From a virus (taxonomy: Duplodnaviria; Caudoviricetes): a stretch of 64,000 nucleotides of DNA. The position numbers and the translations under genes were made by a program. The notes below the pieces were generated by a model. The model worked only from the letters and a program-made list of their open reading frames with translations, was not told the DNA's origin and searched no databases. The stretch is taken from IMG/VR virus record IMGVR_UViG_3300021378_000015, positions 1 through 64,000 of that record; one strand, given 5' to 3'. Below, one piece after another: positions 4,560 to 45,349 of this stretch. Every line of letters begins with the position of its first letter. Position 1 is the first letter of the stretch.

Positions 4560-4799
4560 ATGGAACTTATTAGAAAAATCATTATCGGGCAAAACCCGAA
4601 AGATGCCATGGCTTACTATGTAGGGCAGAAGGCAGGAGAGTCAGTAATCGATTCTATCGTATTAGACGACAGATGTTTTGTCAAACACGGAATTCGTCGC
4701 TATCTTGTATACATCTATAATAAAGAACAGGGTATAATGCTTTGGAAGACAGTAGATGATATGCCAGTATTAATTGAACATGATTGTGACTTCGAATGA
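4560..4799 (+). CDS. Conserved hypothetical phage protein
   Basis: IRKIIIG..PKDAMAYYVGQ; in operon. Confidence 0.75.
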   Translation: MELIRKIIIGQNPKDAMAYYVGQKAGESVIDSIVLDDRCFVKHGIRRYLVYIYNKEQGIMLWKTVDDMPVLIEHDCDFE

Positions 4800-5359
4800 T
4801 TGTAATTGATAATTTTATAAAAGACCAAGATCTTTTGATGGATCTTGAACTTAACAAAGAATACCTATTTAGTGATAACGGATCTTACTACTGGTGGAAC
4901 GGATGGTGGAACTCACCAGACGATACATTAAAGAAAAGACTAATCTGTTATATATGGAGAGACTATCCTCCGTATGGATCTGTTTCTTTAGATGGCTTTG
5001 AGTACTGGACCGGACAATACGGTGAAGGTAAAGGAGTGTCTAACCTAAATATGCACTTAGACAAAGACGAAGACTTATGGAAAACAACGGGTGAAATAAA
5101 AGCCCCTATCATAGGTACAGTGTTCTATCCTGTTGAAATGGACATAGAAGGTGGTTATCTTGAGATATTCTCTAATGGTCCTGACAATGAGCCTGAAAGA
5201 ATTCAAGCAAAGTATAATAGGTTAATCATATTTGACGCAGGTAACATACATCACAGAGTTACAACTGTGACCAAAGGAACAAGATCTGCTATTGCAATAA
5301 ATCTTTGGGATGAAGCACCTACAACAAAATTAAAGTTTGAGGCTCCAGAACCAATATGA
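4796..5359 (+). CDS. 2OG-Fe(II) oxygenase (prolyl-hydroxylase-like)
   Basis: HLD...GGYL...NRLIIFD..HRV...RSAI: HxD..H triad plus 2OG-binding Arg. Confidence 0.85.
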   Translation: MIVIDNFIKDQDLLMDLELNKEYLFSDNGSYYWWNGWWNSPDDTLKKRLICYIWRDYPPYGSVSLDGFEYWTGQYGEGKGVSNLNMHLDKDEDLWKTTGEIKAPIIGTVFYPVEMDIEGGYLEIFSNGPDNEPERIQAKYNRLIIFDAGNIHHRVTTVTKGTRSAIAINLWDEAPTTKLKFEAPEPI

Positions 5360-6305: not shown

Positions 6306-8408
6306 ATGGCGGGACTTGTAGAAATAGAAGATGAGATTGTAATAAATATCTGCCCTGACAAAACTTCCGGAGACGTCAGGCTATACTTTGACTTACCCAT
6401 ACAGTTCCCTAAGCAGCCAGCCAAGAAAGATATACTTTTTAATAATTTAAAAAAAGAAGATCAGAGATGGGTGAGAGAGGGACTTCCTGATGATATCAAA
6501 AAGATCCGGTCAATGGAAGAATGGCTTGGGATGCCGGAATCATTTAGAAAAAAGTTCACACCCTATATAAGCGAAGAATTTAAAAGACGTAGAGATGGAG
6601 TATGGTTTTACAACAACGGGGTACCTACCTATATCACAGGTAACCATTACTTCTTCTTACAGTGGTGTAAGATCGATATTGGATACCCATCATTCCTCGA
6701 CTTTCAAAGGAAACTATTCGTACATCTTGAAGCCTGTATAAGAGATCCAAGATGTGTTGGACAGATCTATGTGAAGTGTCGTCGTTCTGGATACACAAAT
6801 ATGTCCGCATCTATACTCGTCAATGAAGGAACCCAGGTAAAAGAAAAATTATTGGGCATCATGTCGAAGACAGGAACAGATGCACAAGAAAATATATTCA
6901 TGAAGAAGGTGGTGCCTATGTATAAGTCGCTACCTTTTTTCTTTAAACCTATACAAGACGGTACTACCAACCCCCGTATGGAACTCGCATTTCGTGAGCC
7001 ATCAAAAAGAATCACAAAGAAAAATAAGACATCTTCTTCTGGTGAAGCACTCAATACAATTGTAAACTGGAAGAACACTACAACCAATGCATATGATGGG
7101 GAAAAACTCCATATGCTATACTTGGATGAAGCGGGTAAGTGGGAAAAGGGAAACGACATAAGAGAAGCCTGGAGGATACAGCGTACTTGTTTGTTGGTTG
7201 GTCGTAGAATAGTAGGCAAGGCTCTTGTTGGTAGCACCGTTAATCCTCTGGACAGAGGCGGTAAACAATTTAGAGATCTGTATGGTGCAAGTGATCCAAG
7301 GGAAAGAAATGACAATGGGCGTACACGTAGCGGACTGTACTCTGTCTTTATACCGTCTTACGATGCCCTTGAGGGCTTCTTTGATAGGTATGGGATGCCA
7401 GTGGTCGAAGATCCAGAGAAAACTCTTTACACGGAGTATGAGGAGCCTATATCTATAGGAGCAAAGACTTACTTAAAAAACGAACGCAAAGCACTGGTAA
7501 ACGATTCTTATGAACTCAACGAGGTAATACGCCAGTTCCCATTCACTGAAGCAGAGGCATTTAGAGATAGCGCCAAAGCCTCTCTGTTTAATGTGCAAAA
7601 GATTTACGAACAGATAGAATACAATGATGATCTATATCCTTCTCCAATTGTAGTAGGAAACTTTGTTTGGTCTGGCGGTAAGCAGGACACAGAAGTTATG
7701 TTTAAGCCTGATCCAAATGGAAGATGGCGTGTAGCATGGATGCCTCCTTCTGATTTGAGAAACAAAACCAAACCCGATAACGCTTGGATTGGATGTGCCG
7801 GTGTGGATAGTTATGACATCGATGCAACAGTAGATGGAAGAGGATCAAAGGGCGCCTGTCACTTCTATAATAAATTCAACATGGGTCACCCATCGAATAT
7901 GTTTGTTGCTGAATATGCTTCTCGACCACCTCTTGCTAAAATATTTTATGAGGATGTATTGATGGCGGCTAAGTTTTATGGATACCCTGTGTTAATTGAA
8001 AACAATAAGTACGGTATCGCAAGGTACTTTGAGACAAGAGGTTACGATCATTTCTTAATGGAAAGACCAGAGCATTTAGGTTCTAAATTTCAAAGCACTA
8101 AAACTAAAACCAAGGGTATACCATCGAATTCAAAGGATGTTATACAGGCTCATGCTCAAGCGATCGAAGCATATATACATGACCATGTTGGACTCAATGA
8201 AGATACTCTTGAGTTTGGCAAGATGTACTTTGAGCGAACACTGGAGGACTGGGTTAATTTTAAAATAGATGACAGGACTAAGTATGACCTTTCCATATCA
8301 AGCGGGTTGGCATTACTTGCTGCTCAAGGACATAAGCCTGTTAAAGTAAAAAGTGATTTCGAAAAGAAGCAATTCTTCAGAAAGGGTCAGATAATTATAC
8401 GAAAATAA
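6306..8408 (+). CDS. terL: Terminase large subunit
   Basis: KCRRSGYT Walker A, LYLDEAGK Walker B, GVDSYD nuclease, IENN, KYD. Confidence 0.92.
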   Translation: MAGLVEIEDEIVINICPDKTSGDVRLYFDLPIQFPKQPAKKDILFNNLKKEDQRWVREGLPDDIKKIRSMEEWLGMPESFRKKFTPYISEEFKRRRDGVWFYNNGVPTYITGNHYFFLQWCKIDIGYPSFLDFQRKLFVHLEACIRDPRCVGQIYVKCRRSGYTNMSASILVNEGTQVKEKLLGIMSKTGTDAQENIFMKKVVPMYKSLPFFFKPIQDGTTNPRMELAFREPSKRITKKNKTSSSGEALNTIVNWKNTTTNAYDGEKLHMLYLDEAGKWEKGNDIREAWRIQRTCLLVGRRIVGKALVGSTVNPLDRGGKQFRDLYGASDPRERNDNGRTRSGLYSVFIPSYDALEGFFDRYGMPVVEDPEKTLYTEYEEPISIGAKTYLKNERKALVNDSYELNEVIRQFPFTEAEAFRDSAKASLFNVQKIYEQIEYNDDLYPSPIVVGNFVWSGGKQDTEVMFKPDPNGRWRVAWMPPSDLRNKTKPDNAWIGCAGVDSYDIDATVDGRGSKGACHFYNKFNMGHPSNMFVAEYASRPPLAKIFYEDVLMAAKFYGYPVLIENNKYGIARYFETRGYDHFLMERPEHLGSKFQSTKTKTKGIPSNSKDVIQAHAQAIEAYIHDHVGLNEDTLEFGKMYFERTLEDWVNFKIDDRTKYDLSISSGLALLAAQGHKPVKVKSDFEKKQFFRKGQIIIRK

Positions 8409-8443: not shown

Positions 8444-10876
8444 ATGGATAACCAATATAAATCAGGACAGTCTTCCTTTCCAGACGCTTTAGCAGGCACA
8501 GAGGAAAAGATGTCTATGCCTTATGGCTTGCAATATGCAAAGGCCATGTTCGCTCAATGGGTTGGGAGTGACTATCAAAATTCATTATACGGCAGAAGAA
8601 ATACAGAAATGGAACGCTGTAGAGACTATGCTCAGGGAACTCAAGACACGTCTATATACAGACAGATTCTAAATTCTCTTGACCCTAATAACGGGGATGG
8701 AACATTATTAACTCTTGATTACACACCTGTTCCAATCGTTCCAAAGTTTGTAAAGATTGTTGTAAACAAAATATTATCTAAAGAGCCTTATCCACAAATA
8801 CAGGCAATAGACCCTCTTTCAAGATCAGAAAAAGATAAAAAGAAAGCCGCTACTATTTTACGTATTGAAAACCGTAACATAATAGAAGAGGCTAAAGCAC
8901 TTGGTTTAAATGTTTCAGTAGATCCAAATGAACTACCGGAAACACCAGAGGAAACAGAAATATTTCTTGACACAAATATCAAAACTGACGCTGAGATATC
9001 TGCACAGATTGCTACTGAACTGACTCTCAAGTGGAACAACTTTAATGAATCTATATATCGCCGTTGTGTTGAAGACTTGGCCACACTTGGTATGGCTGTG
9101 GCTAAACGTACTAATGATCCTAACTATGGCATCAAAGAAGAATATGTTGATCCAAAACGGTTTGTCCATAACTATACTGATGATCCGAACTTTGGGGACC
9201 TGACATATGCTGGACACTTTAAGTTCATAACCATAATGGAACTCAAGCGTATTGCCGGTGATCAGTTTACTGAAGCGCAATACGAACAGATTGCAAAGAC
9301 CGTAATGAACAAGTACGGAAACAATCCGACTCAATTTAGTTCTGCTGGATATACTTATGATCGTCCAGGAACACGTTACCGTCAGGGATACGATGAGTAC
9401 AAGGTTGAAGTTATGGACTTTGAGTTCATGTCTGTTGACAACATCATATACGAGAAGAAAGAATCTGCTTATGGGAACATAGGCTTTTATTACAAAGGGA
9501 CAGAGTACAATGCTCCTCAACAATCGGTATACGATCGAGAAGCAATGTACATGAGTAACGCTACTGTATACGGAGGTACTTACATTGTGGGTACAGAGTT
9601 AATGTTTGACTACGGTCCTAAGAAAAACATACCTAAGAACGTACACGATATATCCCGTGCTACATTATCATACAGCGCCATTGCAACAAACATTAGAGGA
9701 ATGATTCCTAAATCAATGGTTTCCTCTGTTATTGGGTTTGCTGATATGTTACAAATCACACACCTCAAGATTCAACAATCTATTGCTAAGGCAAAGCCTG
9801 ATGGTTTGATCATAGATATCGAGGGCTTAGAGAATGTACAACTTGGTAGAGGTGGAGAACTTCAACCATTAGAGATTCAAGACATATACGAACAAACTGG
9901 TATCTTCTATTACAGAAGTAAAAATCCAGAAGGTGGATTCCAAAACCCACCGGTTCGCGAAATAGGAAATGCTATCAGAAACATCACAGAATTGGTTGCT
10001 ATATACAATCACTATCTAAGGATGATTAGAGACGCCACAGGGATCAATGAGGTCATGGATGGAACTTCACCCAAGGGAGATGCTCTTGTGGGCGTTAGAC
10101 AGCAGCAAATAGCCGCAGGTAACAATGCTATATATGATATTACTAACGCTGCTATGGTTCTTTACAAAAAGGTTTGTGAAGACGTTGTGAAATGTTTACA
10201 GATTATACCACCAAAAAGTATTCTTTACAAGGCATATACTAATGCTATTGGAGAAACAAACATGGCGGTGATAACCTCGTTTGATAATCTATCTATGTAC
10301 AACTTTGGAGTAATGGTTGTTACAGAAATGGGTGAGATGGACAAGGCCTATTTAGAACAAAATATTCAAATAGCGCTTGCTCAAAAAGAAATTGATCTTG
10401 AGGATGCTATTGCGATCAGACAAATAAAGGATGTTGAGCAAGCCGAAAGATTATTGGTTGTTCGTCGCAAGAAGCGTATGAAGCAGCAGCAACAAATAGC
10501 GGCTCAAAATATGCAGATGCAAGCACAGGCAAATGCAGAGTCATCACAAGTTGCAGGTCAGATTGAAATGCAGAAAAAACAAATGGAGGCTCAGATAGAA
10601 GCACAGCGCATTCAATTAGAGACCCAAGCAAAAGCACAACTGTTGGAACTTGAATATCAATACAAGATTCAATTAGAAAACATAAAAGGAGAGTACGGTA
10701 TTGTTGAACAACAAATTGAGAGTGGGGTAAAGCAACAAGAGCAGGCAGTATCAGAGAACCGTAAAGATGCTCGAATAGATAAGCAGGCTGCTGCTCAAAG
10801 TAAATTAATCGCTCAACGTCAAGGAGAGAGACCCCCAATGGAAGAAGAAGTAATAACAAACTTAACCCTATCGTAA
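8444..10876 (+). CDS. Portal protein
   Basis: 810 aa after TerL; PVPIVPKFV, IRDATGINE..DG, Gln-rich coiled-coil C-terminus. Confidence 0.88.
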   Translation: MDNQYKSGQSSFPDALAGTEEKMSMPYGLQYAKAMFAQWVGSDYQNSLYGRRNTEMERCRDYAQGTQDTSIYRQILNSLDPNNGDGTLLTLDYTPVPIVPKFVKIVVNKILSKEPYPQIQAIDPLSRSEKDKKKAATILRIENRNIIEEAKALGLNVSVDPNELPETPEETEIFLDTNIKTDAEISAQIATELTLKWNNFNESIYRRCVEDLATLGMAVAKRTNDPNYGIKEEYVDPKRFVHNYTDDPNFGDLTYAGHFKFITIMELKRIAGDQFTEAQYEQIAKTVMNKYGNNPTQFSSAGYTYDRPGTRYRQGYDEYKVEVMDFEFMSVDNIIYEKKESAYGNIGFYYKGTEYNAPQQSVYDREAMYMSNATVYGGTYIVGTELMFDYGPKKNIPKNVHDISRATLSYSAIATNIRGMIPKSMVSSVIGFADMLQITHLKIQQSIAKAKPDGLIIDIEGLENVQLGRGGELQPLEIQDIYEQTGIFYYRSKNPEGGFQNPPVREIGNAIRNITELVAIYNHYLRMIRDATGINEVMDGTSPKGDALVGVRQQQIAAGNNAIYDITNAAMVLYKKVCEDVVKCLQIIPPKSILYKAYTNAIGETNMAVITSFDNLSMYNFGVMVVTEMGEMDKAYLEQNIQIALAQKEIDLEDAIAIRQIKDVEQAERLLVVRRKKRMKQQQQIAAQNMQMQAQANAESSQVAGQIEMQKKQMEAQIEAQRIQLETQAKAQLLELEYQYKIQLENIKGEYGIVEQQIESGVKQQEQAVSENRKDARIDKQAAAQSKLIAQRQGERPPMEEEVITNLTLS

Positions 10877-10877
10877 T

Positions 10878-11276
10878 ATGGCTTGCGGATGCTCAAATAG
10901 TCCATGTTCATGTCCTAACCCGACAAACTTAAATATGAACAACGCTGCACAGTTAAATATCTGTACGCGTCGTGGAGACACGTTTATCTTAAACTCTGTT
11001 GTAGCATCCTCGAATGGTGTGAAGTTAGATCTTACTCTATACTCTTTTAAAATGGAAGTTAGAGAATATGACAATGGACCACTGGTTATAACCAATACCG
11101 ATATAACTACCACTGGAGATATCAATGGAAATCTCGTGGTGACTATAACAGCGGCTAATATGCAGGTACCAGCAGGTACATATGTATATGGTTTTCAATC
11201 AACACTTACATCTGCTGGCACTGTTGAGACTTGGTTCTATGGAACCTTTGAAGTAGTGCAGGACATCGTAACATAA
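10878..11276 (+). CDS. Putative fibre adaptor (BppU/DUF2479-like beta sandwich) with Cys-rich N-terminus
   Basis: RRGDTF..DLT.Y..MEVR..GTYVY..GTFEV; MACGCSNSPCSCP. Confidence 0.55.
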   Translation: MACGCSNSPCSCPNPTNLNMNNAAQLNICTRRGDTFILNSVVASSNGVKLDLTLYSFKMEVREYDNGPLVITNTDITTTGDINGNLVVTITAANMQVPAGTYVYGFQSTLTSAGTVETWFYGTFEVVQDIVT

Positions 11277-11294
11277 ATTTCAGAACAACCCCTA

Positions 11295-14200
11295 ATGGCT
11301 GAAGTAGAAATCATAGTAATAGAAGCAGGCGGACTTGTCTTCGACATAACACTTCCACCTCAAACAACAGCGGTAATAACTCCTGGTAGTGTTACTCAAC
11401 TTGTTGGTGCCAAAGGAGACAAGGGACAAAAGGGCCAGAAGGGTGAAATAGGTCTTAAAGGTTCTAAAGGGGAAATAGGAGTTAAGGGTGATACTGGATC
11501 AAAAGGAAATACTGGAGATAAGGGTACTACTGGTGATAAAGGCATACAGGGCGACAAAGGTGAAGTCGGTGCAAAAGGAGAAGAAGGTGCTAAAGGTGAG
11601 ATCGGTGTTAAAGGAGATACCGGTGCAAAGGGAGACACTGGAGACAAAGGTACTTCTGGAGACAAAGGCCAGAAAGGTATAGATGGATCCAAAGGACAAG
11701 AAGGCGCTAAAGGAAATATCGGTGATAAGGGTACTACTGGAGATAAAGGTATTACTGGTGATAAGGGCGAGGCTGGTGACAAAGGCCAAAAGGGTATTGA
11801 TGGTACCAAAGGAGATACTGGTGATAAAGGTACTGCTGGAGATAAAGGTCAGAAAGGAATTGACGGAACCAAAGGAGATACGGGAGACAAAGGTACCGCT
11901 GGAGAAAAAGGAGAGAAAGGAATTGATGGCACCAAAGGAGATACTGGCGACAAGGGAATCACTGGTGATAAAGGTGAGGCCGGAGCCAAAGGTGAAAAAG
12001 GAATTGACGGAACCAAAGGAGATACTGGTGATAAAGGTACCGCTGGAGAAAAAGGAGAAAAAGGAATTGATGGTACCAAAGGAGATACTGGCGACAAAGG
12101 TCAGAAGGGTATTGATGGTACTAAAGGAGATACCGGAGACAAAGGTACTGCCGGTGACAAAGGTGAGAAAGGTCAGAAAGGTCAGGATGGCGTCAAGGGT
12201 CAAGAGGGAGATTCATGGACATCAGCGGTAGGACCACCATCTACTCCCGGAGTTAACATAGGTGATCAGTATTTAGATACGGCCACTGGCGATGTTTATG
12301 AGTGGGATGGTGCCCAATGGGTCCCCACCGGAAATATCCAGGGTCCTGCCGGAGGCAAAGGGCAAAAAGGAATTGACGGTACCAAAGGTGATACTGGCGA
12401 TAAGGGAACTGCTGGTGATAAAGGCGAAGCCGGTTCTAAAGGTGAGAAAGGTATTGACGGTACGAAGGGCGCCACTGGCGATAAAGGTACTACCGGAGAT
12501 AAAGGAGAGAAAGGTCAGAAAGGAATTGACGGGTTAAAAGGAGAAGAAGGAGATAGTTGGACTTCCGCTGTTGGCCCACCATCTACTCCCGGAGTTAACA
12601 TAGGTGACCAATACTTAGATACGGCCACTGGCGATGTCTACGAATGGGATGGTGCTCAATGGGTACCTACTGGAAATATTCAAGGGCCTGCTGGAGGTAA
12701 GGGACAAAAAGGTATTGATGGCACTAAAGGAGACACAGGAGATAAGGGAACTGCTGGTGATAAAGGAACTGCTGGCGATAAAGGTCAAAAAGGGATTGAC
12801 GGCACCAAGGGGGATACTGGAGATAAAGGAACCACTGGTGACAAGGGTGAGAAAGGTCAGAAAGGAATTGACGGTCTTAAAGGACAAGAGGGAGATAGTT
12901 GGACTTCCGCTGTTGGACCGCCGAGTACTCCAGGTACTAACGTAGGTGATCAATATCTTGACACTGCAACCGGTGATGTCTACGAATGGGACGGTGCTCA
13001 ATGGGTACCAACTGGTAATATACAAGGACCACAAGGAGGCAAAGGGCAAAAAGGTCAAGACGGCACCAAAGGAACTACGGGGGACAAAGGTATTTCCGGG
13101 GACAAAGGTGAGAAGGGTATCGATGGTACGAAGGGCCAGAAGGGTGAAGACGGAACTAAGGGGACTACGGGAGACAAAGGAGAGAAAGGCCAGAAAGGTA
13201 TAGATGGCGTCAAGGGTCAAGAAGGTGACTCATGGACATCTGCTGTTGGACCACCGAGTACTCCAGGTGTTAACATAGGCGACCAATACCTTGATACAGC
13301 GACTGGTGATGTTTATGAGTGGGATGGTGCACAGTGGGTACCTACTGGGAACATCCAAGGTCCTGCTGGTGGTAAAGGCCAAAAAGGTGAAGACGGCGAC
13401 AAAGGTGCGGCTGGAGACAAGGGAACTGCTGGTGATAAAGGTGAGAAGGGCATCGATGGTACCAAAGGACAGAAGGGTATTGACGGTACTAAAGGTACAA
13501 CTGGCGACAAAGGAGATAAAGGACAAAAGGGACAAGACGGTGTTAAAGGGCAAGAAGGTGATTCTTGGACCTCAGCAGTAGGCCCCCCATCTACTCCCGG
13601 CACGAATATAGGTGATCAATATCTTGACACTAATACAGGAGACGTTTACGAGTGGGATGGTGCTCAGTGGGTACCTACCGGTAATATACAGGGGCCTGCT
13701 GGTGGCAAAGGTGAAAAAGGACAAAAAGGACAAGACGGTGCATCTGTAAAAGGCCAAAAAGGTGAAGCGGGTGACAAAGGTCAAAAAGGGATTGACGGTA
13801 CTAAAGGTGATAAAGGTATCGATGGCACCAAAGGAACCACTGGAGATAAAGGTGAAAAAGGACAAAAGGGACAAGACGGTGTTAAAGGCCAAGAAGGAGA
13901 CTCTTGGACTTCCGCTGTTGGACCTCCATCTACTCCAGGTACTAATGTTGGTGATCAATACCTTGATACTAATACAGGTGATGTCTACGAATGGGACGGA
14001 GCGCAATGGGTGCCGACTGGAAACATTCAAGGACCACAAGGCGGTAAAGGAGAGAAAGGTCAGAAGGGCCAAGATGGTGCTTCAGTCAAAGGGCAAAAAG
14101 GAGAAGAAGGAGATAAGGGATCCAAAGGAGAGAAGGGTATTGACGGTACTAAAGGTACCACTGGTGATAAGGGACAAACTGGTGAGAAGGGTGTCGCTGG

Positions 14201-17200
14201 AGATAAAGGCGCTGCTGGAGACAAAGGTCAAAAAGGTGAAGATGGTACCAAAGGCCAAAAAGGTGAAGAAGGAGATAAAGGACAAAAAGGCCAGAAAGGT
14301 GAAATAGGTCTTAAAGGACAAGAAGGAGACTCTTGGACATCTGCTGTTGGACCTCCGTCTACTCCGGGTACCAATGTAGGTGATCAGTACTTAGATACTA
14401 ATACAGGCGATGTCTACGAATGGGACGGCGCTCAATGGGTACCAACTGGGAACATCCAAGGTCCACAAGGAGGTAAGGGCCAGAAGGGTCAAGACGGAGC
14501 CTCGGTCAAAGGTCAAAAAGGAGAAGAAGGAGATAAGGGTCAGAAAGGTCAAGACGGTGCTTCCGTTAAAGGACAGAAGGGCGAAGCCGGTGCTTCGGTT
14601 AAAGGTCAGAAGGGTGAAGCAGGTGCCAGTGTTAAGGGGCAGAAAGGCGAAGAAGGAGACAAGGGCCAAAAAGGAATTGACGGCACCAAGGGAACTACTG
14701 GTGATAAAGGAGAGAAAGGTGAGAAAGGGCAAAAAGGAGAGATAGGAGTTAAGGGCCAAGAGGGAGACTCTTGGACTTCCGCTGTTGGACCACCTTCAAG
14801 TCCCGGAACGAATGTAGGCGACCAATACTTAGATACTAATACAGGCGATGTCTACGAATGGGATGGTGCACAGTGGGTTCCAACCGGTAATATCCAAGGG
14901 CCACAAGGTGGTAAAGGACAGAAGGGTCAAGATGGAGCATCTGTCAAGGGCCAGAAAGGTGAAGCGGGTGACAAAGGTGCACAAGGAGCGTCTGTCAAAG
15001 GACAGAAGGGCGAGGCTGGAGACAAGGGTGCACAAGGAGCATCTGTCAAGGGTCAGAAAGGTGAAGCAGGAGATAAAGGAACAGCGGGAGATAAAGGACA
15101 GAAAGGTGAGGCTGGTACTAAAGGTCAGAAAGGTGAGGCTGGAGATAAGGGTCAGAAAGGACAAAAAGGAGAAATAGGAGTCAAGGGCCAAGAAGGAGAC
15201 TCTTGGACATCGGCTGTTGGGCCGCCATCTACCTCTGGCACTAATGTTGGCGACCAATATCTTGACACTGCCACAGGTGATGTCTACGAATGGGACGGAG
15301 CGCAATGGGTTCCTACTGGCAATATCCAGGGACCACAAGGTGGTAAAGGAGAGAAAGGCCAGAAGGGTATCGATGGAGCCTCTGTTAAAGGACAAAAAGG
15401 TGAGGCTGGAGACAAGGGTCAAACAGGCGCTTCAGTTAAAGGACAAAAAGGTGAGGCTGGAGACAAGGGTGCAACTGGTGCCAGTGTCAAAGGTCAGAAA
15501 GGAGAAGCCGGAGACAAAGGTGCAACTGGTACAGCGGTCAAGGGTCAAAAGGGTGAAGACGGAACCAAAGGTCAGAAAGGACAAGACGGTGCTTCGGTAA
15601 AAGGACAAAAAGGCGAAGCAGGAGATAAAGGTGCTCAAGGGGCTTCGGTCAAAGGACAGAAGGGCGAGGCTGGAGACAAGGGTGCACAGGGTGCAAGTGT
15701 CAAAGGCCAAAAGGGTGAGGCTGGAACTAAGGGTCAGAAAGGACTTGAAGGTGATTCATGGACTTCTGCTGTTGGACCACCGAGTGGTTCAGGTACTAAC
15801 GTAGGTGATCAATATTTAGATACAGCGACTGGTGACGTCTATGAATGGGATGGCGCGCAATGGGTACCAACTGGAAATATCCAGGGGCCTCAAGGCGGTA
15901 AGGGTCAGAAGGGTCAAGATGGCGCATCCGTTAAAGGCCAAAAGGGTGAAGCAGGTGATAAGGGTCAGAAAGGACAAGACGGTGCATCTGTTAAAGGACA
16001 GAAAGGTGAGGCCGGTGCATCTGTTAAAGGACAGAAGGGCGAAGCCGGAGCAAGCGTTAAAGGACAGAAAGGTGAGGCTGGTACTAAAGGTGCTACCGGT
16101 ACTGCCACTAAGGGCCAGAAGGGTGAGGCTGGTACTAAGGGTGCTACTGGTACCGCTACTAAAGGTCAGAAGGGCGAGGCTGGTACTAAAGGTGCTACCG
16201 GTACTGCTACCAAAGGACAAAAAGGAGAAGTGGGAGATAAAGGCGCTGCTGGAGCATCTGTCAAGGGGCAGAAGGGTGAGGCAGGTACCAAAGGCCAAAA
16301 GGGAGAAGAAGGAGATAACTGGACCTCAGCAGTTGGACCACCGAGTGGTGCAGGTACCAATGTAGGTGATCAGTACTTAGATACTACCACAGGTGACGTG
16401 TACGAATGGGATGGTGCACAGTGGGTTCCAACTGGAAATATCCAGGGGCCACAAGGTGGTAAAGGACAGAAGGGTGCTGCTGGTGCTGCTACTAAAGGTC
16501 AGAAGGGCGAGGCAGGAACAAAAGGTGCTGCTGGAGATAAAGGTGCAACGGGCACAAGTGTTAAAGGTCAGAAGGGTGCTGATGGTGCTTCAGTTAAGGG
16601 TCAGAAAGGTGAAGCCGGTACTAAAGGTGCTACCGGTACTGCTACTAAAGGTCAGAAGGGTGAGGCTGGTACTAAAGGTGCTACTGGTACTGCGACTAAG
16701 GGACAAAAAGGTGAGGCTGGTACTAAGGGTGCAACCGGTACTGCGACTAAGGGCCAGAAGGGTGAAGCCGGTACTAAGGGTGCTACTGGTACTGCGACTA
16801 AGGGACAAAAAGGTGAGGCTGGAGCCAGTGTCAAAGGACAAAAAGGTGAGGCTGGTACAAAGGGACAGAAAGGTGAAGAAGGAGATAACTGGACCTCAGC
16901 AGTTGGACCACCGAGTGGTGCAGGTACTAATGTTGGAGATCAGTACTTAGATACTACCACAGGTGATGTCTATGAATGGGACGGCGCTCAATGGGTACCA
17001 ACTGGAAATATCCAAGGTCCTTCTGGTGCTTCGGTCAAGGGACAGAAGGGTGCTGCTGGTGCTTCGGTCAAGGGACAAAAAGGTGAGCAAGGTGTTTCAG
17101 TCAAAGGACAAAAAGGTGAGCAAGGTGTTTCAGTCAAAGGCCAGAAAGGTGAGGCTGGTGCTTCAGTCAAGGGACAAAAAGGTGAGGCTGGTGCTTCGGT

Positions 17201-17783
17201 CAAGGGACAGAAAGGTGAGGCTGGTACTTCAGTCAAAGGCCAGAAGGGTCAGACAGGATCAGCGGGTAATGATGGATCAGACGGTACTAAAGGACAGAAG
17301 GGTCAGACAGGTTCTTCTGGAACACCGGGTACTGGATTTACTCCTATGATTGGCGGAATTGACTCCAGTCAAACATTTACTACGGCTCAAACGCGTTGTA
17401 ATATAAACAGAACTTTAGGTGGTGGTCAAGCGGGTACAAACGTAGATATTAGTTCTAATCAAATTACTATATCAGCAACGGGTACATATCTGTGTACTTA
17501 CTCTGTGACACTAAAGTCTAATTACAACAACCGTTCATGTGTAGGTTTCTACTTAAAGCAAGTGACAGGGGGTAGCACAAACCCAATAGGTTCAGCGGCA
17601 ATTCAATACTTCCGTCATAATACTTATGGAGACTTCAGTACCCTTAGCGCATGTTTTATTTTCCAATCAACATCTGGTGATGCATATGAGTTGACTACAT
17701 CCAATGCTCTTGATGGTATTTGGAATCACTCAACGCAATCCGCAAGTGTATATAGAGGTATAATGGTTCAAAGATTAACATAA
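11295..17783 (+). CDS. Giant collagen-like fibre protein (Gly-X-Lys rich, 12 repeated knob domains, C-terminal C1q/BclA-like head)
   Basis: Long Gly-X-Y runs (GDK, GQK, GEK, GTK); 12 x D(S/N)WTSAVGPP..GDQYLDT.TGDVYEWDGAQWVPTGNIQGP; ITISATGTYLCTYSV in C-terminal domain. Confidence 0.95.
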   Translation: MAEVEIIVIEAGGLVFDITLPPQTTAVITPGSVTQLVGAKGDKGQKGQKGEIGLKGSKGEIGVKGDTGSKGNTGDKGTTGDKGIQGDKGEVGAKGEEGAKGEIGVKGDTGAKGDTGDKGTSGDKGQKGIDGSKGQEGAKGNIGDKGTTGDKGITGDKGEAGDKGQKGIDGTKGDTGDKGTAGDKGQKGIDGTKGDTGDKGTAGEKGEKGIDGTKGDTGDKGITGDKGEAGAKGEKGIDGTKGDTGDKGTAGEKGEKGIDGTKGDTGDKGQKGIDGTKGDTGDKGTAGDKGEKGQKGQDGVKGQEGDSWTSAVGPPSTPGVNIGDQYLDTATGDVYEWDGAQWVPTGNIQGPAGGKGQKGIDGTKGDTGDKGTAGDKGEAGSKGEKGIDGTKGATGDKGTTGDKGEKGQKGIDGLKGEEGDSWTSAVGPPSTPGVNIGDQYLDTATGDVYEWDGAQWVPTGNIQGPAGGKGQKGIDGTKGDTGDKGTAGDKGTAGDKGQKGIDGTKGDTGDKGTTGDKGEKGQKGIDGLKGQEGDSWTSAVGPPSTPGTNVGDQYLDTATGDVYEWDGAQWVPTGNIQGPQGGKGQKGQDGTKGTTGDKGISGDKGEKGIDGTKGQKGEDGTKGTTGDKGEKGQKGIDGVKGQEGDSWTSAVGPPSTPGVNIGDQYLDTATGDVYEWDGAQWVPTGNIQGPAGGKGQKGEDGDKGAAGDKGTAGDKGEKGIDGTKGQKGIDGTKGTTGDKGDKGQKGQDGVKGQEGDSWTSAVGPPSTPGTNIGDQYLDTNTGDVYEWDGAQWVPTGNIQGPAGGKGEKGQKGQDGASVKGQKGEAGDKGQKGIDGTKGDKGIDGTKGTTGDKGEKGQKGQDGVKGQEGDSWTSAVGPPSTPGTNVGDQYLDTNTGDVYEWDGAQWVPTGNIQGPQGGKGEKGQKGQDGASVKGQKGEEGDKGSKGEKGIDGTKGTTGDKGQTGEKGVAGDKGAAGDKGQKGEDGTKGQKGEEGDKGQKGQKGEIGLKGQEGDSWTSAVGPPSTPGTNVGDQYLDTNTGDVYEWDGAQWVPTGNIQGPQGGKGQKGQDGASVKGQKGEEGDKGQKGQDGASVKGQKGEAGASVKGQKGEAGASVKGQKGEEGDKGQKGIDGTKGTTGDKGEKGEKGQKGEIGVKGQEGDSWTSAVGPPSSPGTNVGDQYLDTNTGDVYEWDGAQWVPTGNIQGPQGGKGQKGQDGASVKGQKGEAGDKGAQGASVKGQKGEAGDKGAQGASVKGQKGEAGDKGTAGDKGQKGEAGTKGQKGEAGDKGQKGQKGEIGVKGQEGDSWTSAVGPPSTSGTNVGDQYLDTATGDVYEWDGAQWVPTGNIQGPQGGKGEKGQKGIDGASVKGQKGEAGDKGQTGASVKGQKGEAGDKGATGASVKGQKGEAGDKGATGTAVKGQKGEDGTKGQKGQDGASVKGQKGEAGDKGAQGASVKGQKGEAGDKGAQGASVKGQKGEAGTKGQKGLEGDSWTSAVGPPSGSGTNVGDQYLDTATGDVYEWDGAQWVPTGNIQGPQGGKGQKGQDGASVKGQKGEAGDKGQKGQDGASVKGQKGEAGASVKGQKGEAGASVKGQKGEAGTKGATGTATKGQKGEAGTKGATGTATKGQKGEAGTKGATGTATKGQKGEVGDKGAAGASVKGQKGEAGTKGQKGEEGDNWTSAVGPPSGAGTNVGDQYLDTTTGDVYEWDGAQWVPTGNIQGPQGGKGQKGAAGAATKGQKGEAGTKGAAGDKGATGTSVKGQKGADGASVKGQKGEAGTKGATGTATKGQKGEAGTKGATGTATKGQKGEAGTKGATGTATKGQKGEAGTKGATGTATKGQKGEAGASVKGQKGEAGTKGQKGEEGDNWTSAVGPPSGAGTNVGDQYLDTTTGDVYEWDGAQWVPTGNIQGPSGASVKGQKGAAGASVKGQKGEQGVSVKGQKGEQGVSVKGQKGEAGASVKGQKGEAGASVKGQKGEAGTSVKGQKGQTGSAGNDGSDGTKGQKGQTGSSGTPGTGFTPMIGGIDSSQTFTTAQTRCNINRTLGGGQAGTNVDISSNQITISATGTYLCTYSVTLKSNYNNRSCVGFYLKQVTGGSTNPIGSAAIQYFRHNTYGDFSTLSACFIFQSTSGDAYELTTSNALDGIWNHSTQSASVYRGIMVQRLT

Positions 17784-17784
17784 T

Positions 17785-17982
17785 ATGGCGGTTCAAGAAA
17801 GTTTCTACATACAAAATGCAGACAATACAGCGAATTTAAAAACCGATGGATCATGGGAAAGGACTGATGATAACTTCGATGAGTTTCGTTCGTTCTCAAC
17901 AAAGGCAGAAGCGCTTGCATACATAGATAATATACCCGACGGGGCATATGTGATATACAGTAGAATTGTAAAGACCAGTTAG
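17785..17982 (+). CDS. Hypothetical protein (possible fibre chaperone)
   Basis: 65 aa directly after the collagen gene. Confidence 0.7.
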   Translation: MAVQESFYIQNADNTANLKTDGSWERTDDNFDEFRSFSTKAEALAYIDNIPDGAYVIYSRIVKTS

Positions 17983-18029
17983 ATAATGTATCTTTAGTGA
18001 TGCAATAGTTAATTTAATTGTATCAACAA

Positions 18030-20282
18030 ATGGTCATTGTATTCCACGCAGGATATTATGCAAGTGCCTGGAACCCCTATTATAACTCAGAAGGAATAGG
18101 AGGAACCGAGCAATGTATAATGGGGTTATCAAGGTCACTGGCTATACAAGGGCATAGTGTTTTTGTAGTAGGCCAGGTCAAGCCTGTTTCTGATAAATAC
18201 CCCAACAGCGGATCCCTTAATTATGTAGATCTAAAAAACATAAGTGAGATCCCAGAGATAGATATACTTATCGGTGTATCATATATCCACTACTTAAAAT
18301 ACTATAATCTAAAGCCACAGACTAAGAAGATATTCTGGTTACACAATGAACATCCTCACTATTGGTACAAGGGCCAGCGTATGTCTGACGCAGATATAAA
18401 AGATGCTTATCTAAACACGGACACAATTGTTTGTCTTACCAATTGGCATAAAGAATACTTTATAAAGAATGAAGCCCCGGATCATTTATCAGTAGATAAA
18501 GTAGAGGTGATTGGCAATGGCCTTGATACATCGCTGTTTGAGCCTGTCATCACTAAGAAAAAAGATTCTTACATATACACATCTCATCCAGAACGAGGAC
18601 TTGATGCAGTAATCAGTGATATTGAAAAAGGATACCTTGATGGGACTCTCGATATATGTACACCTGCTTATGGTTTGGAGTACTACAATAAAAACTTTTC
18701 CGAGCGTGTATCTAAATTAGAAGGTGTTACTTTTCATGGTAGTCTCTCTAATAAAGAGTTGTATAAACTAATGTCTAAGTGTGAGAGTTGGTATTACCCT
18801 ACTACATACAATGAAACTTATTGTTTAACAGCGATTGAAATGTTGGGACACCATGTAAGACCTTTGGTCAATCCTATTGCTGGGCTTAAAGAAACTTTAA
18901 ATAAGTTTAGCAAACATATAACAGATTGGTCTAAGGTTGATGAATACGTTAACTCTCGTGACTGGAAGTTAGTAGCAAAAGAATGGGAAATTTTATTTAA
19001 TAAAAAGGAAAGCCTTATGATTCAAAAAGTCTATGTAATATCTATGGACACCTCTGACAAAAAGTTAAAAGAGTATACAGGTAGACTAAAGGAAGCGGGT
19101 ATTGATTGTGACGTAGTGATAGTGCCAGGTGTAGACGCAAGATCTTTTAAAGATTATAAATGGTCTCCACATGATTCATGGGCTATGAACAGTGATAATA
19201 AATGGTGGAACCAACCGGTAACAGTCGGTGAGATGGGCTGTGGTTTAGCACATTTAAATACCTGGAAGAAAATTGTAGAGGATCAAACAGAGATTGCTTT
19301 AATATGTGAGGAAGATTTCTTCTTTAAAGGCAAGATAGATTATTCAATTATTCCTGATCCAAGTACATGGGACATGCTTTACTTAGGGCGCAGAGCAATG
19401 GCTCCAGATAGAGATGATTACGGGGATATTGTAGTCCCTGGATACTCTTATAACTTGCATGCGTATATGGTTACCCAGGCAGGTGCATTATCTTTTACTC
19501 AGCATAACTTCCAGGAGTATATAACAGCGGCAGATGAATTTATTCCTGCTACTTATTGTGTCCATCCAAGAGGTGATTGGGACTGGGTAACAAGAGATAC
19601 TCGTGCACTTGCGCTAAAAGAAGATATTGCTTTTCAGTCATCTAATGACAACACAAGTAGAACCCAGTCTACTGTTCACGAAGAGATTTTTAAATCTGGC
19701 AAATGGCCTGAATGGGTTGATAAATGGATTCATCCTGCTGCTAAGACAAAGGCTTGGGACATGATATTTGAAGAGCCTATACAAGATGTTATATCATATC
19801 CTTTGTTTACAGAAGAGTTTTGCAAATTGCTTATAGATGAGGCAGAGCAGAAGGCTTTATGGCAAACTAAAAGACATGAATTTTATCCAACAGTGGATAC
19901 ATTAATATCTTCATTTGGGTACGACGAAATATACAAGCGTGTTCTAAAAGAGTTTGTTTTTCCGGCGGCGATAACCAGGTGGCACCTTCACGGTAAAGCA
20001 TGGATAAATATGGATAGTGAAAACTTCATGATTAAATACACTACAGATACACAGGGTCACTTAGATCTGCATCATGACAACGCTGTTATTAGTTCGGTGC
20101 TAACTTTAAACAAAGACTATACAGGGGGAGGTACATATTTCTATAATCAAAAACAAACACACGTAGGAGATGTGGGGCATATTGCTGTTCATCCTGGGCA
20201 AGTAACACATAGGCATGGTGGAAGACCAGTACACAGTGGTAAGAGATATATACTTGTCTCGTTTTGTAATAAACAAAACTAA
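18030..20282 (+). CDS. Trifunctional GT4-like glycosyltransferase / GT25 (COLGALT-like) / PLOD-like lysyl hydroxylase
   Basis: GIGGTEQ..WLHN..IGNG..YTSHPERGL..ETYCLTAIEM (GT-B); GVDA..GEMGCGLAH..EEDF..WDMLYLGR..AYMVT..DEFIP (GT25); NFMIKY..HHD..DYTGGGT.F..HPGQVTHRHGG..RYILVSF (PLOD). Confidence 0.88.
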   Translation: MVIVFHAGYYASAWNPYYNSEGIGGTEQCIMGLSRSLAIQGHSVFVVGQVKPVSDKYPNSGSLNYVDLKNISEIPEIDILIGVSYIHYLKYYNLKPQTKKIFWLHNEHPHYWYKGQRMSDADIKDAYLNTDTIVCLTNWHKEYFIKNEAPDHLSVDKVEVIGNGLDTSLFEPVITKKKDSYIYTSHPERGLDAVISDIEKGYLDGTLDICTPAYGLEYYNKNFSERVSKLEGVTFHGSLSNKELYKLMSKCESWYYPTTYNETYCLTAIEMLGHHVRPLVNPIAGLKETLNKFSKHITDWSKVDEYVNSRDWKLVAKEWEILFNKKESLMIQKVYVISMDTSDKKLKEYTGRLKEAGIDCDVVIVPGVDARSFKDYKWSPHDSWAMNSDNKWWNQPVTVGEMGCGLAHLNTWKKIVEDQTEIALICEEDFFFKGKIDYSIIPDPSTWDMLYLGRRAMAPDRDDYGDIVVPGYSYNLHAYMVTQAGALSFTQHNFQEYITAADEFIPATYCVHPRGDWDWVTRDTRALALKEDIAFQSSNDNTSRTQSTVHEEIFKSGKWPEWVDKWIHPAAKTKAWDMIFEEPIQDVISYPLFTEEFCKLLIDEAEQKALWQTKRHEFYPTVDTLISSFGYDEIYKRVLKEFVFPAAITRWHLHGKAWINMDSENFMIKYTTDTQGHLDLHHDNAVISSVLTLNKDYTGGGTYFYNQKQTHVGDVGHIAVHPGQVTHRHGGRPVHSGKRYILVSFCNKQN

Positions 20283-20869
20283 TGGTATATCATAATCATA
20301 AATTAGTTTTCATAGCAGTACCAAAGTGTATGACAACTTCGATCCACAGAGAATTGAGGACTCAAGAAGAGATTGATAACAGACATGGTCATAAGCATTA
20401 CACATTCTTTGACCTAACAGAGGAATACAGCAATAAAATGCTTTCTGAATATACATCCTTTACTATTGTACGTAACCCCTATGATCGAATATGGTCCGCG
20501 TGGAAACATAATTTTTTAAGACAGCAGACTATAGAGGAGCCAAACATGATTGAAAGGTTTCAAGATTATATTAAAACAGATTTGCTACTACAATTTAAGA
20601 AAGATGATTATGACCGTATACATTTTGTACCACAGGTAGACTTCTTGTATCTAATGCGGAGGCACAAACTTGTAGATCATATTTTTAAATACGAGACATT
20701 TGCTAATGATTGGTTACTGTTCAGGGAGAATCATAACAAGAAACTACCAGAGAAATTTGTCCGCGTAAACTATACAGCGAAAACAGATCAAGATCCATAC
20801 GACAATGAATCAAGAGAGATTATAAAAAAAATATATGAAGACGATTTCAGACTCTTTAATTATTTATAA
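20282..20869 (+). CDS. Sulfotransferase family 2 (carbohydrate sulfotransferase-like)
   Basis: FIAVPKCMTTS 5'-PSB, VRNPYDRIWSAW 3'-PB, HFVPQ, YEDDFRLFNY; TAATG-coupled. Confidence 0.87.
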   Translation: MVYHNHKLVFIAVPKCMTTSIHRELRTQEEIDNRHGHKHYTFFDLTEEYSNKMLSEYTSFTIVRNPYDRIWSAWKHNFLRQQTIEEPNMIERFQDYIKTDLLLQFKKDDYDRIHFVPQVDFLYLMRRHKLVDHIFKYETFANDWLLFRENHNKKLPEKFVRVNYTAKTDQDPYDNESREIIKKIYEDDFRLFNYL

Positions 20870-43877: not shown

Positions 43878-44387
43878 CTATAGAGGTTTCATTTCGTAAT
43901 AGGGTGAGTATGCGTGCCTTACATCCCAGAGCCTTACATCGTCGGGTGTGAAATCGGCAAATAGATATTCGTCTGGTGATGTAAACAAGATGAAGAGTAC
44001 TATGTCGGACTCTTCTTTATCCATCGCTCTCTTGTTAGCCTTGAATGTTTTCTCACAAGTCTTTACACTAAGTCCGTACTTAATCTTTGTTGACTCTACT
44101 ATAATGTCTGGGTCATCAGTAACATTCTTTGTTTCTTTTAACAGCGTAGACACTGTATATCTAGTTACCTCTGGTGTAACCTCAAAGTAATGACGGATAA
44201 GCAACTCACCAAGTATGCCTATGTACTCTGTGTAATACTCTCTTGATACTTCTCCCAATAATACTGATTGCTTTGTACCCTTTCTCTGTTTGTGAGTACC
44301 CTTATACCTTCTGCGATTAGCATCAATCCTTCTTAACGTAAGGTCATTGGCATATTCTTTTAGGTATGATGGGATCTGGTCTTTCAT
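43878..44387 (-). CDS. Hypothetical protein, possible PD-(D/E)xK nuclease fold
   Basis: GILGE..PDI..SVKT pattern. Confidence 0.55.
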   Translation of the reverse strand: MKDQIPSYLKEYANDLTLRRIDANRRRYKGTHKQRKGTKQSVLLGEVSREYYTEYIGILGELLIRHYFEVTPEVTRYTVSTLLKETKNVTDDPDIIVESTKIKYGLSVKTCEKTFKANKRAMDKEESDIVLFILFTSPDEYLFADFTPDDVRLWDVRHAYSPYYEMKPL

Positions 44388-45349
44388 GAGAGTCCTTCAA
44401 GCCGCAGTTTATTTATGGTAGACAAATCATAATGCTCTTTACAATACTCGTAAAGATTCTTACCAAGCCTCATAGCCTTGGGTAATGTCATGCCCTCTAC
44501 GGCCTCCTTCCATTCTTGTGGTGTGTCACACAGGATGCCTGTCTCTCCGTGCTTTATAACCTCCTTATATGGCGTTACGTTTGATGCTATGATTGCAGTA
44601 CGAGTGAACCCTGCTTCAACTACTTTTAATTCAGACTTGCTTTTGTTGAACTTGGAGTCCTTCAAGGGGCTAAGGGAGACATCGAAGAACTTGTACAACT
44701 TAGCGTACTGAGTAATATCCACAGGGTTCATTCTATACTTTGCTTTTAACTTTTCTGGATAGTCCATCAGACCCATGCAATATAACTCATGGTCTTCAAA
44801 CGTCATACCCATCTGCTCTAAATCTTTTTGATGTCCATTGGCTCCGAGATATCCAAAGCGAACCTTGTAGTCTTTAGGCATATCCTTTTCCCAATCAATC
44901 CATTGCTCCTCCTTTTGATGTATGGTATTCGGTATCACCCGGTATACAGCGGAAGGGTTTATGTCTTTCATTATCTCTACAAGAAACGCAGAGGGACTCC
45001 AAATCTCATCGGCTATGAGTATACTCGCCTTGATATCTTTTGACTGATGGTTCTTGTAGTATTCGTAAGCAGGATTATCCTTTGGTAGTTTCCAATAGTC
45101 ATCGTTGTCTAATATAAGTTTGACATCATTGTCTACCAGATACTGCTTGAATGCTTTATGATTGGAGACGCTAAACCTTCTTGACCCTACAAGGTTCTTG
45201 ACCTTTGAAAGGTCGAACTCTTTAAGGTCATTAAAGTTTTCTATAAAGTGTATCTCCAGATCCTCCTCTTCCTTAAGTCTAAGGAAGGGTGTCATTAGCC
45301 GGTGATAGTTGATACCATTTAGGCCGTCAAGATAAATCAGCGTCATCAT
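44384..45349 (-). CDS. GT4-like glycosyltransferase
   Basis: YHRL.TP, DNDDYW, DVSLSPL..FNKSKSELKVVEAG, IASNVTPY. Confidence 0.85.
   Translation of the reverse strand: MMTLIYLDGLNGINYHRLMTPFLRLKEEEDLEIHFIENFNDLKEFDLSKVKNLVGSRRFSVSNHKAFKQYLVDNDVKLILDNDDYWKLPKDNPAYEYYKNHQSKDIKASILIADEIWSPSAFLVEIMKDINPSAVYRVIPNTIHQKEEQWIDWEKDMPKDYKVRFGYLGANGHQKDLEQMGMTFEDHELYCMGLMDYPEKLKAKYRMNPVDITQYAKLYKFFDVSLSPLKDSKFNKSKSELKVVEAGFTRTAIIASNVTPYKEVIKHGETGILCDTPQEWKEAVEGMTLPKAMRLGKNLYEYCKEHYDLSTINKLRLEGLS

Follow-up and report, generated by a model that had tools for sequence, protein, structure and literature searches.

Hydroxylysine-linked glycosylation of collagen is regarded as a trait of animals, mimivirus being the single viral exception, and a 2022 review describes most prokaryotic collagens as lacking hydroxylation and glycosylation and names only mimivirus among collagen-modifying viruses (PMC8968730). 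The nearest prior art consists of the mimivirus proteins L230 and R699, the human complex of lysyl hydroxylase 3 (LH3) with GLT25D1, and the prediction by Iyer, Abhiman, de Souza and Aravind in 2010 that bacterial collagen-like and tail-collar proteins are hydroxylated, by other dioxygenase families, and then sulfated (PMC2938197). Here we analyze a fibre gene cassette of a tailed phage, found in the IMG/VR record IMGVR_UViG_3300021378_000015; the stretch under study (hereafter, the window) comprises bases 1-64000 of this 81,340-bp record. The cassette consists of five open reading frames (ORFs) on the + strand (10878-20869), located downstream of the terminase gene and flanked by the portal gene and the head genes, and encodes a long collagen-like protein and, close to it, an enzyme that combines two glycosyltransferase (GT) domains with a lysyl hydroxylase (LH)-like domain. 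Homology, conserved catalytic residues, a fold model and gene linkage all point to hydroxylation of the collagen Lys residues followed by addition of a hexose by the GT25 domain as the best reading, to which we assign a probability of about 0.7. The features of the cassette are as follows.

10878-11276, + strand: 132-aa conserved protein, immediately downstream of the portal (phrog_1084, function unknown)
11295-17783, + strand: 2162-aa collagen-like fibre protein (Pfam Collagen PF01391, E = 1.7e-143)
12216-12341, + strand: non-collagen insert of 42 aa (WTSAVGPPS...WVPTGNIQ), the first of its 12 copies, interrupting the triple helix
17337-17780, + strand: C-terminal 148-aa TNF/C1q-like jelly-roll head of the collagen-like protein (AlphaFold model, mean pLDDT 82.9)
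17785-17982, + strand: 65-aa gene between the collagen and enzyme genes (no Pfam, PHROG or NCBIfam match)
18018-20282, + strand: tri-domain enzyme with 754 aa (TTG start, 18018) or 750 aa (ATG start, 18030)
18018-19007, + strand: enzyme domain 1, GT4-type GT-B glycosyltransferase, aa 1-330 (PF13439, E = 3.7e-7, over the cut-off)
19017-19655, + strand: enzyme domain 2, COLGALT1-like GT25 glycosyltransferase, aa 334-546 (PF01755, E = 2.1e-12)
19677-20282, + strand: enzyme domain 3, LH-like Fe(II)/2-oxoglutarate (2OG) dioxygenase, aa 554-754 (by phmmer, profile and fold)
20282-20869, + strand: 195-aa Sulfotransfer_2 sulfotransferase (PF03567, E = 6.6e-19, 69.5 bits against a cut-off of 22)

The phage enzyme resembles mimivirus L230, a bifunctional collagen lysyl hydroxylase/hydroxylysine glucosyltransferase and likewise a viral enzyme, in that a GT25-like domain is located N-terminal to the LH domain (for L230, this order is given in a review, PMC9614988, which also lists Glc as the sugar donated by L230 and Gal as that donated by COLGALT1). 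The differences are substantial: L230 consists of 895 aa, whereas the phage enzyme has 750 aa and includes an additional N-terminal GT4 domain, which is new relative to L230; the phage gene adjoins that of its presumed substrate within a fibre cassette and has an optional sulfotransferase partner; the host is a bacterium rather than an amoeba; and the activity of the phage enzyme is a prediction. From the N- to the C-terminus, the domains follow the order GT4/GT-B, GT25, LH-like, and the ATG at 18030 is the likely true start because it is matched by the starts of the homologues. Pfam delineates GT4 at aa 27-172 and GT25 at aa 336-440, along with an OGFOD2-like dioxygenase domain below the cut-off. 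In a single-protein phmmer search against the PDB sequences, the best matches were the LH domain of L230 (4.1e-22), human LH3 (2.2e-20) and COLGALT1 (7.2e-12). A profile built from 20 diverse members of the family reached 4.9e-41 for LH3, 3.2e-36 for L230 and 2.3e-32 for COLGALT1, the last match spanning the whole GT25 domain, whereas bacterial GT25 reached just 2e-6; besides LH3 and L230, no dioxygenase was listed in this PDB search at E<=0.001.

The catalytic residues were surveyed in 70 enzymes extracted from 79 viral loci. In the LH-like domain, Y674, H685, D687, H733 and R743 align with L230 Y814, H825, D827, H877 and R887, the Fe/2OG residues used for the mapping (PMC5802723). The predicted Fe(II) triad H685/D687/H733, equivalent to L230 H825/D827/H877, is invariant in the 20 profile members and in 68/68 relatives that reach these columns; the predicted binders of the 2OG C5-carboxylate, Y674 and R743 (L230 Y814 and R887), are conserved as well, so that the LH residues are retained in every relative that reaches the respective columns (67-68). 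For the GT25 domain, the reference is GLT25D1, in which, according to a 2026 structure paper, D437 binds the metal and D522 is the catalytic base (PMC12987934). The phage residues E431 and D433 align with the Mn site residues E435 and D437 of GLT25D1, and both E431 and D433 are conserved in 70/70 relatives; E432 aligns with D436, which contacts the ribose, this position being occupied by Glu in 48 relatives and by Asp in 22; and D506, which corresponds to D522 by residue count on the HMMER alignment, is kept in 70/70. Within the 20 profile members, the GT25 residues are invariant as well. In the GT4 domain, E266 and E274 are invariant in the 20 members and in the relatives that reach these columns; their spacing is that of the E-x7-E motif of GT4.

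The AlphaFold model of the enzyme (mean pLDDT 86.8) places linkers at residues 330-333 and 547-553. In Foldseek comparisons, the LH-like domain matched LH3 (E = 1.1e-21) and L230 (6ax6_B; TMt 0.84, rmsd 1.9 A, 32% identity), with identical Fe/2OG residues in the latter, and the GT25 domain matched COLGALT1 (3.6e-15). The N-terminal domain matched retaining GT4 enzymes, namely MshA, PimA, the alpha-1,2-glucosyltransferase tll1591 (TMt 0.69) and tetrahydrobiopterin glucosyltransferase. Sequence, profile, residues and fold thus agree on the PLOD-like, COLGALT-like and additional GT-B domains that a preliminary description, made from the sequence alone, had recognized.

The phage enzyme and the human LH3/COLGALT1 pair share the same predicted chemistries, that is, 5-hydroxylation of Lys, addition of the first sugar by GT25 and addition of the second by a retaining glycosyltransferase. 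In the phage, however, a single polypeptide comprises all three domains, the second sugar would be added by a GT4 domain with the GT-B fold rather than by the glycosyltransferase domain of LH3, which is of the GT-A type, and the reaction would occur in the cytoplasm rather than in the endoplasmic reticulum. Compared with GLT25D1, the inactive N-terminal glycosyltransferase domain is absent, D436 is replaced by Glu, and the DxD at 461-463 is not retained.

Metagenomes commonly contain members of the enzyme family, with 118 clusters at E<=1e-3, mostly of 725-877 aa; in the source databases, the homologues are named only as hypothetical proteins or as 'GR25 family' lipopolysaccharide (LPS)/cell-wall glycosyltransferases. 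In a profile search of 1.84 billion representatives, about 25 full-length tri-domain proteins were found among the best 150 matches, together with two- and single-domain forms.

The presumed substrate, the 2162-aa protein, consists of a 37-aa N-terminal region, about 427 Gly-X-Y triplets, the 12 copies of the 42-aa insert and the C-terminal globular head. The 427 triplets form 39 runs, the longest of 90 triplets, and the helix is broken by the insert copies and by numerous G-x-x-x-K-G interruptions. Lys occupies Y in 219/427 triplets (51%) and does not rank among the ten most frequent residues at X; Pro is found at X in only 11/427 triplets and likewise falls outside the ten most frequent residues at Y. 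These counts bear out the earlier observation that Lys is present at Y in about every second triplet whereas Pro is scarce. Hundreds of X-Lys-Gly sites had been anticipated as well, and indeed, Gly follows 270 of the 272 Lys residues of the collagen, 231 of them in the strict context G-x-K-G.

PHROG tail-fibre families match the collagen-like protein strongly. For the 42-aa insert, there are weak leads only, namely a collagen-flanked surface repeat or Mtd_N clusters (0.84). The top Foldseek match of the 148-aa head is Bacillus anthracis BxpB (8d02; E = 1e-7, TM 0.72), followed by BAFF, TNF-alpha and B. cereus ExsFA. The fold matches suggest an architecture shared with the Bacillus exosporium glycoprotein BclA and the TNF-like proteins BxpB and ExsFA, in which a collagen-like stalk carries a C-terminal trimeric TNF/C1q-like head. 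BclA is a glycosylated prokaryotic collagen, O-glycosylated on the Thr of GPT repeats; however, the BclA system is not known to include a lysyl hydroxylase, and the similarity of the phage head to Pfam BclA_C is not significant (E = 0.06). Trimeric collagen-like segments within fibre proteins, as found here, are also a feature of collagen-like phage tail fibres, of which the E. coli O157 prophage collagens are reportedly an example.

To characterize the linkage between the enzyme and collagen, we used IMG/VR, in which 377 stretches encode a relative of the enzyme; the best 80, representing 79 loci, were analyzed, and an upstream ORF on the same strand with at least 15 triplets was counted as a collagen neighbour. 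By this definition, a collagen ORF is located upstream of the enzyme in 67/79 loci. When the enzymes are grouped into 43 clusters at 90% identity, the collagen is found upstream in 38; in 4 clusters less than 3 kb of upstream sequence is available, and a single clade has none within 10 kb, although one lies about 11 kb upstream in its three searched records. The same association emerges when the portal rather than the enzyme serves as the query. Among the 80 portal relatives that were kept of 400 (at least 82% identity), 18 extend at least 9.5 kb downstream, and of these, 17 contain both collagen and enzyme and 1 contains neither; in the 68 with at least 1 kb downstream, a collagen begins after the 132-aa gene in 57. 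The three collagen-less portal loci that were examined contain other fibre-like genes in this slot, and no enzyme was seen there. Many contigs among the portal-relative loci (L097-L175) break off within the collagen gene or only shortly past its beginning. Such cassettes are probably under-recovered because collagen repeats evidently break metagenome assemblies.

A similar association is seen in a second lineage. In the cultured cyanomyovirus Synechococcus phage S-8S55 (OQ504983.1, 20,472-40,148), a fusion of GT25 with a 2OG dioxygenase domain is encoded immediately after the tail-fibre genes, one of which encodes 55 triplets; of these, 24 have Lys at Y and none has it at X. The fusion protein is annotated merely as a 2OG-Fe(II) oxygenase, and several additional 2OG oxygenase genes are located nearby.

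In two of the remaining proteins of the cassette, those of 132 and 65 aa, no Pfam match was detected even at E<=1, and NCBIfam yielded nothing useful for these two proteins, the enzyme or the sulfotransferase. The 132-aa gene is kept in 79/80 portal-relative loci irrespective of the fibre gene that follows, and the 80th locus stops 2 nt past the portal. The nearest protein-atlas clusters of the 132-aa protein (score 0.96) are automatically named BppU N-terminal domain or carry LtfC in 11% of their members, which we treat as a lead only; given its position and this language-model label, the protein is probably a fibre-attachment adaptor. Homologues of the 65-aa protein were identified by tblastn at the same position in 22/79 related loci.

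We infer the substrate of the enzyme, the order of the steps, the identities of the sugars, the sulfate acceptor and the placement of the fibre on the virion as follows. The cassette would be a swap-in fibre module of a crAss-like podovirus, in which the 2162-aa protein assembles into a trimeric collagen stalk tipped by the TNF/C1q-like head and probably docks on the virion via the conserved 132-aa protein. Within the host cytoplasm, the enzyme would tailor the collagen chains ahead of triple-helix folding, as in animals, where collagen is modified prior to folding (PMC8968730). The LH-like domain would hydroxylate Lys in X-Lys-Gly using Fe2+, 2OG and O2; the GT25 domain, acting by an inverting mechanism, would attach the first hexose to the hydroxyl thus formed; the GT4 domain, which belongs to a retaining family, probably adds a second sugar, although this step is less certain; and the product of the overlapping sulfotransferase gene may sulfate the glycan using host 3'-phosphoadenosine 5'-phosphosulfate (PAPS). 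A precedent for such chemistry in a bacterial cytoplasm comes from the mimivirus lysyl and prolyl hydroxylases which, when co-expressed in E. coli, hydroxylated a fragment of human collagen III (PMC9546862). The pathway in the preliminary description ran from Lys through hydroxylysine and two sugars to sulfate; its collagen and hydroxylase/glycosyltransferase parts are backed by homology, residues, fold and linkage, whereas the sulfate step is weak.

Several observations weigh against this scheme, and those on sulfation are considered first. The sulfotransferase is present in only 6/79 related loci, all within one 95%-identity enzyme cluster, three members of which lack it; no PAPS synthase was seen in the window; and a second Sulfotransfer_2 gene is located in the replication module. 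That the sulfotransferase, where present, sulfates the glycan is accordingly a tentative proposal to which we give somewhat less than even odds. A slightly less probable alternative is that the collagen is hydroxylated and glycosylated, but the sulfotransferase either sulfates the hydroxyl of hydroxylysine directly or serves an unrelated target. The sporadic occurrence of the gene and the existence of the paralog among replication genes are compatible with this possibility, and hydroxylation with subsequent sulfation of the hydroxyl has been proposed for collagen-like or tail-collar proteins whose genes accompany those of dioxygenases and sulfotransferases (Iyer et al. 2010; PMC2938197). The sulfotransferase ATG, however, overlaps the enzyme TAA as TAATG, and the gene occupies a slot that in relatives holds other collagen-tailoring genes, a position that favours a role in the same pathway. 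Moreover, the best PHROG match, phrog_3347 (5.6e-13), is labelled 'galactose-3-O-sulfotransferase', and many characterized PF03567 members are carbohydrate sulfotransferases. The protein had no match among PDB sequences; it contains PKCMTTS near the N-terminus as well as RNPYDR, which are presumably the 5'-PSB and 3'-PB PAPS-binding loops, respectively.

The observations that count against collagen as the target begin with the composition of the collagen itself. Glu or Asp follows Lys-Gly in 88/270 cases, forming KGE/KGD charge pairs, and in related collagens, Arg is also nearly confined to Y; stabilization of a Pro-poor helix by charge pairs likewise predicts Lys at Y. The near-exclusive location of Lys at Y was considered as evidence of a hydroxylase substrate and dropped: because Arg shows the same bias and charge pairs account for it, this bias is not discriminating. 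In the enzyme, the GLT25D1 DxD at 461-463, reported to be essential in earlier mutagenesis, corresponds to TWD at 450-452, and neither Asp position is constant across the family. In clades whose enzymes are 34-38% identical, the LH residues are all retained, and the collagens that accompany these enzymes have Lys at Y in only 1-14% of the triplets. A Lys-rich partner is therefore not required, and the richness in Lys stressed in the preliminary description does not define the partner. In the case of a two-domain form of the enzyme (P0089), a collagen was found within 10 kb in 0/4 loci; of two such records that were searched whole, one encodes a collagen and the other none. Finally, mimivirus particles contain hydroxylysine, but its glucosylation was not found, according to a review (PMC9614988).

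In a distant clade (L055-L073; for example, L071 3369-9938), the enzyme gene follows two or three dissimilar collagen genes. Both Gly-Pro-Ile/Gln repeats and a type with Gly-Ser/Thr-Ser are represented; these collagens contain little Lys, which nevertheless occurs at Y, for instance, in periodic GPKGD near short helix breaks.

Another point against collagen as the target comes from bacteria. LH-domain homologues encoded in bacterial genome contigs have a collagen within 10 kb in only 1/27 loci and are surrounded by housekeeping genes, which refutes the adjacency of these genes to collagens that we had expected. The bacterial proteins (L186-L204) are 38-46% identical to the phage LH-like domain; some consist of this domain alone, at about 250 aa (Thiothrix, Thiotrichaceae, Leucothrix), and others are GT4+LH fusions with a length of about 560 aa (Aliishimia, Granulosicoccaceae). 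Collagen-like ORFs are present elsewhere in 5/5 bacterial genomes chosen from these 27, compared with 4/14 control genomes, and in 4 of the 5, Lys is at Y; this is a weak signal from a small, hand-picked sample.

These observations could fit an alternative under which the collagen is unmodified and charge-stabilized and the enzyme acts on another virion protein, on the TNF-like head or inserts, or on host LPS or capsule, resulting in superinfection exclusion. In bacteria, GT25 is best known for its role in LPS, and homologues are named 'GR25 family glycosyltransferase involved in LPS biosynthesis'; the KGE/KGD pairs can account for Lys at Y, and the bacterial homologues have a collagen nearby in only 1/27 loci. 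Nevertheless, we consider a non-collagen target unlikely: the GT25 domain is much closer to COLGALT1 than to bacterial GT25, the PDB relatives of the fused LH-like domain at the threshold used are exclusively collagen lysyl hydroxylases, the enzyme and collagen are gained or lost jointly in one phage lineage, and the examined non-collagen fibre variants lack the enzyme. Hypermodification of phage DNA through base hydroxylation and subsequent glycosylation, brought to mind by the known pairing of dioxygenases with glycosyltransferases in phage DNA modification and by the 'DNA endonuclease' label of phrog_2297, which also matches the C-terminal domain, is highly improbable given that no TET/JBP-type match was found, that the best matches are collagen lysyl hydroxylases, and that the gene lies among the late structural genes and moves together with those for collagen.

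The reading in which the collagen is hydroxylated and glycosylated finds further support in the accessory genes of the related loci. A P4H-type oxygenase of about 200 aa (PF13640) adjoins the enzyme in 40/40 loci in which Pro occupies X in at least 6% of the triplets and in 0/16 loci in which it does so in at most 3%; this comparison includes the 56 usable of the 79 loci (L003-L081), which are not phylogenetically independent. The Pro-poor cassette in the window lacks the PF13640 oxygenase, and the sulfotransferase occupies its slot. The enzyme set of the cassette thus tracks the composition of the collagen. Additional variable accessory genes in related loci encode DUF6445, an FkbM methyltransferase, Laminin_G_3 and DUF7936.

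A broader, rather speculative proposition that we regard as doubtful is that abundant aquatic phages, namely the probable crAss-like lineage studied here, whose portal has about 400 relatives in IMG/VR, and myovirus-like lineages including cyanophages, carry a complete and self-contained collagen-tailoring toolkit matched to collagen composition, comprising the LH-like domain and two glycosyltransferases, a P4H-type oxygenase if Pro is present, and an optional sulfotransferase or methyltransferase. Within the bacterial cytoplasm, such phages would produce virion fibres that resemble mucins or glycosaminoglycans, being heavily glycosylated and in some cases sulfated. If so, the supposedly animal-specific glycosylation of hydroxylysine would be common throughout the virosphere of prokaryotes, where it might also be older.

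The pathway proposed for this cassette, which relies on a compact single-chain enzyme encoded close to its presumed substrate and conserved in dozens of phage genotypes, would by itself extend this chemistry to viruses of bacteria and raise anew the issue of how the LH and GT25 collagen enzymes originated. It would also imply a phage surface of a new type, on which a long fibre presents potential glycan sites in the hundreds and could serve in host recognition, in adhesion to mucus or particles, or in escape from defence. Furthermore, the enzyme would be suited to the bacterial cytoplasm for making hydroxylated and glycosylated recombinant collagen, which is considered an unsolved production problem (PMC9546862).

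The preliminary description knew of no phage precedent, and a full-text literature search, with most subscription journals outside it, did not reveal any lysyl hydroxylase or collagen glycosyltransferase described from a bacteriophage. The claim of novelty is nevertheless narrower than that of an animal-like system unknown outside animals and Mimivirus because hydroxylated and sulfated prokaryotic collagens were predicted in 2010. That prediction shares with the present cassette a prokaryotic collagen-like protein encoded beside a hydroxylase and a sulfotransferase, but concerns bacterial operons without a GT25/GT4 step rather than a phage virion-fibre cassette (PMC2938197). What is new here is the fusion of known enzyme families, the host context, and the modular, substrate-adjacent cassette.

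Outside the cassette, the following features of the window are relevant to the nature of the phage and to possible additional modifications.

4796-5359, + strand: PF13640 2OG oxygenase, upstream of the terminase gene
6306-8408, + strand: large terminase (phrog_6681)
8444-10876, + strand: portal (phrog_6547)
27384-32444, + strand: 1686-aa virion protein (crAss muzzle C-terminal domain PF25729, E = 1.2e-7)
35294-41344, + strand: 2016-aa protein (weak PHROG match only)
44384-45349, - strand: group-1 glycosyltransferase, in the replication module
47961-48599, - strand: second Sulfotransfer_2 protein, in the replication module
49496-50170, - strand: FkbM methyltransferase, in the replication module
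58045-58132, - strand: tRNA-Gln (anticodon TTG), just before the presumed join of two genomes

Four of these genes, encoding the group-1 glycosyltransferase, the second Sulfotransfer_2 protein, the FkbM methyltransferase and the PF13640 oxygenase, are candidate glycan- or protein-tailoring genes beyond the cassette.

The relatives of the large terminase include those from phages infecting Bacteroides intestinalis DSM 108646 or Cellulophaga and from an Azobacteroides phage, with a top identity of 47.8%; a blastn search of the phage collection with the terminase and portal genes gave 0 matches, and relatives were found at the protein level only. Together with the muzzle domain of the 1686-aa protein, these terminase relatives point to a crAss-like phage. 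Judging by the relatives, its hosts are likely to be Flavobacteriia. The 1686-aa and 2016-aa proteins are compatible with a crAss-like tail and cargo module. In Flavobacterium phage elemoE (NC_055854) and in MW202828, the head-gene block directly follows the portal, and the five-ORF block is hence an insertion relative to these two phages. The initial account of a contiguous + strand block inserted after the portal is upheld, with all five ORFs at the positions originally assigned.

The record itself seems to be composite. Bases 61533-81340 are collinear with bases 923-21563, at a nucleotide identity of 64-77%, and the amino acid identity between the two blocks is 83% for the terminase, 85% for the portal, 64% for the 132-aa gene product and 46% for the tri-domain enzyme. 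An independent 21,758-bp contig matches the window from 58,771 onwards at 99% identity, beginning at its own base 1, and complete related records are about 60 kb long. The 81-kb record thus most likely joins two related phages of about 60 kb each in a chimeric or concatenated assembly, which leaves the cassette finding intact and makes the second block another natural example of the cassette. This second cassette lies outside the window, at 70,808-80,198 of the record, and lacks a sulfotransferase. Its collagen differs from the first and consists of 1789 aa, with 475 triplets and Lys at Y in 231 of them; it is followed by genes for a Laminin_G_3 protein, a 65-aa protein, a DUF6445 (2OG-like) protein and a 770-aa tri-domain enzyme. 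By eye, the C-terminus of the 1789-aa collagen resembles an intramolecular chaperone of the endosialidase type, for which it is a candidate only.

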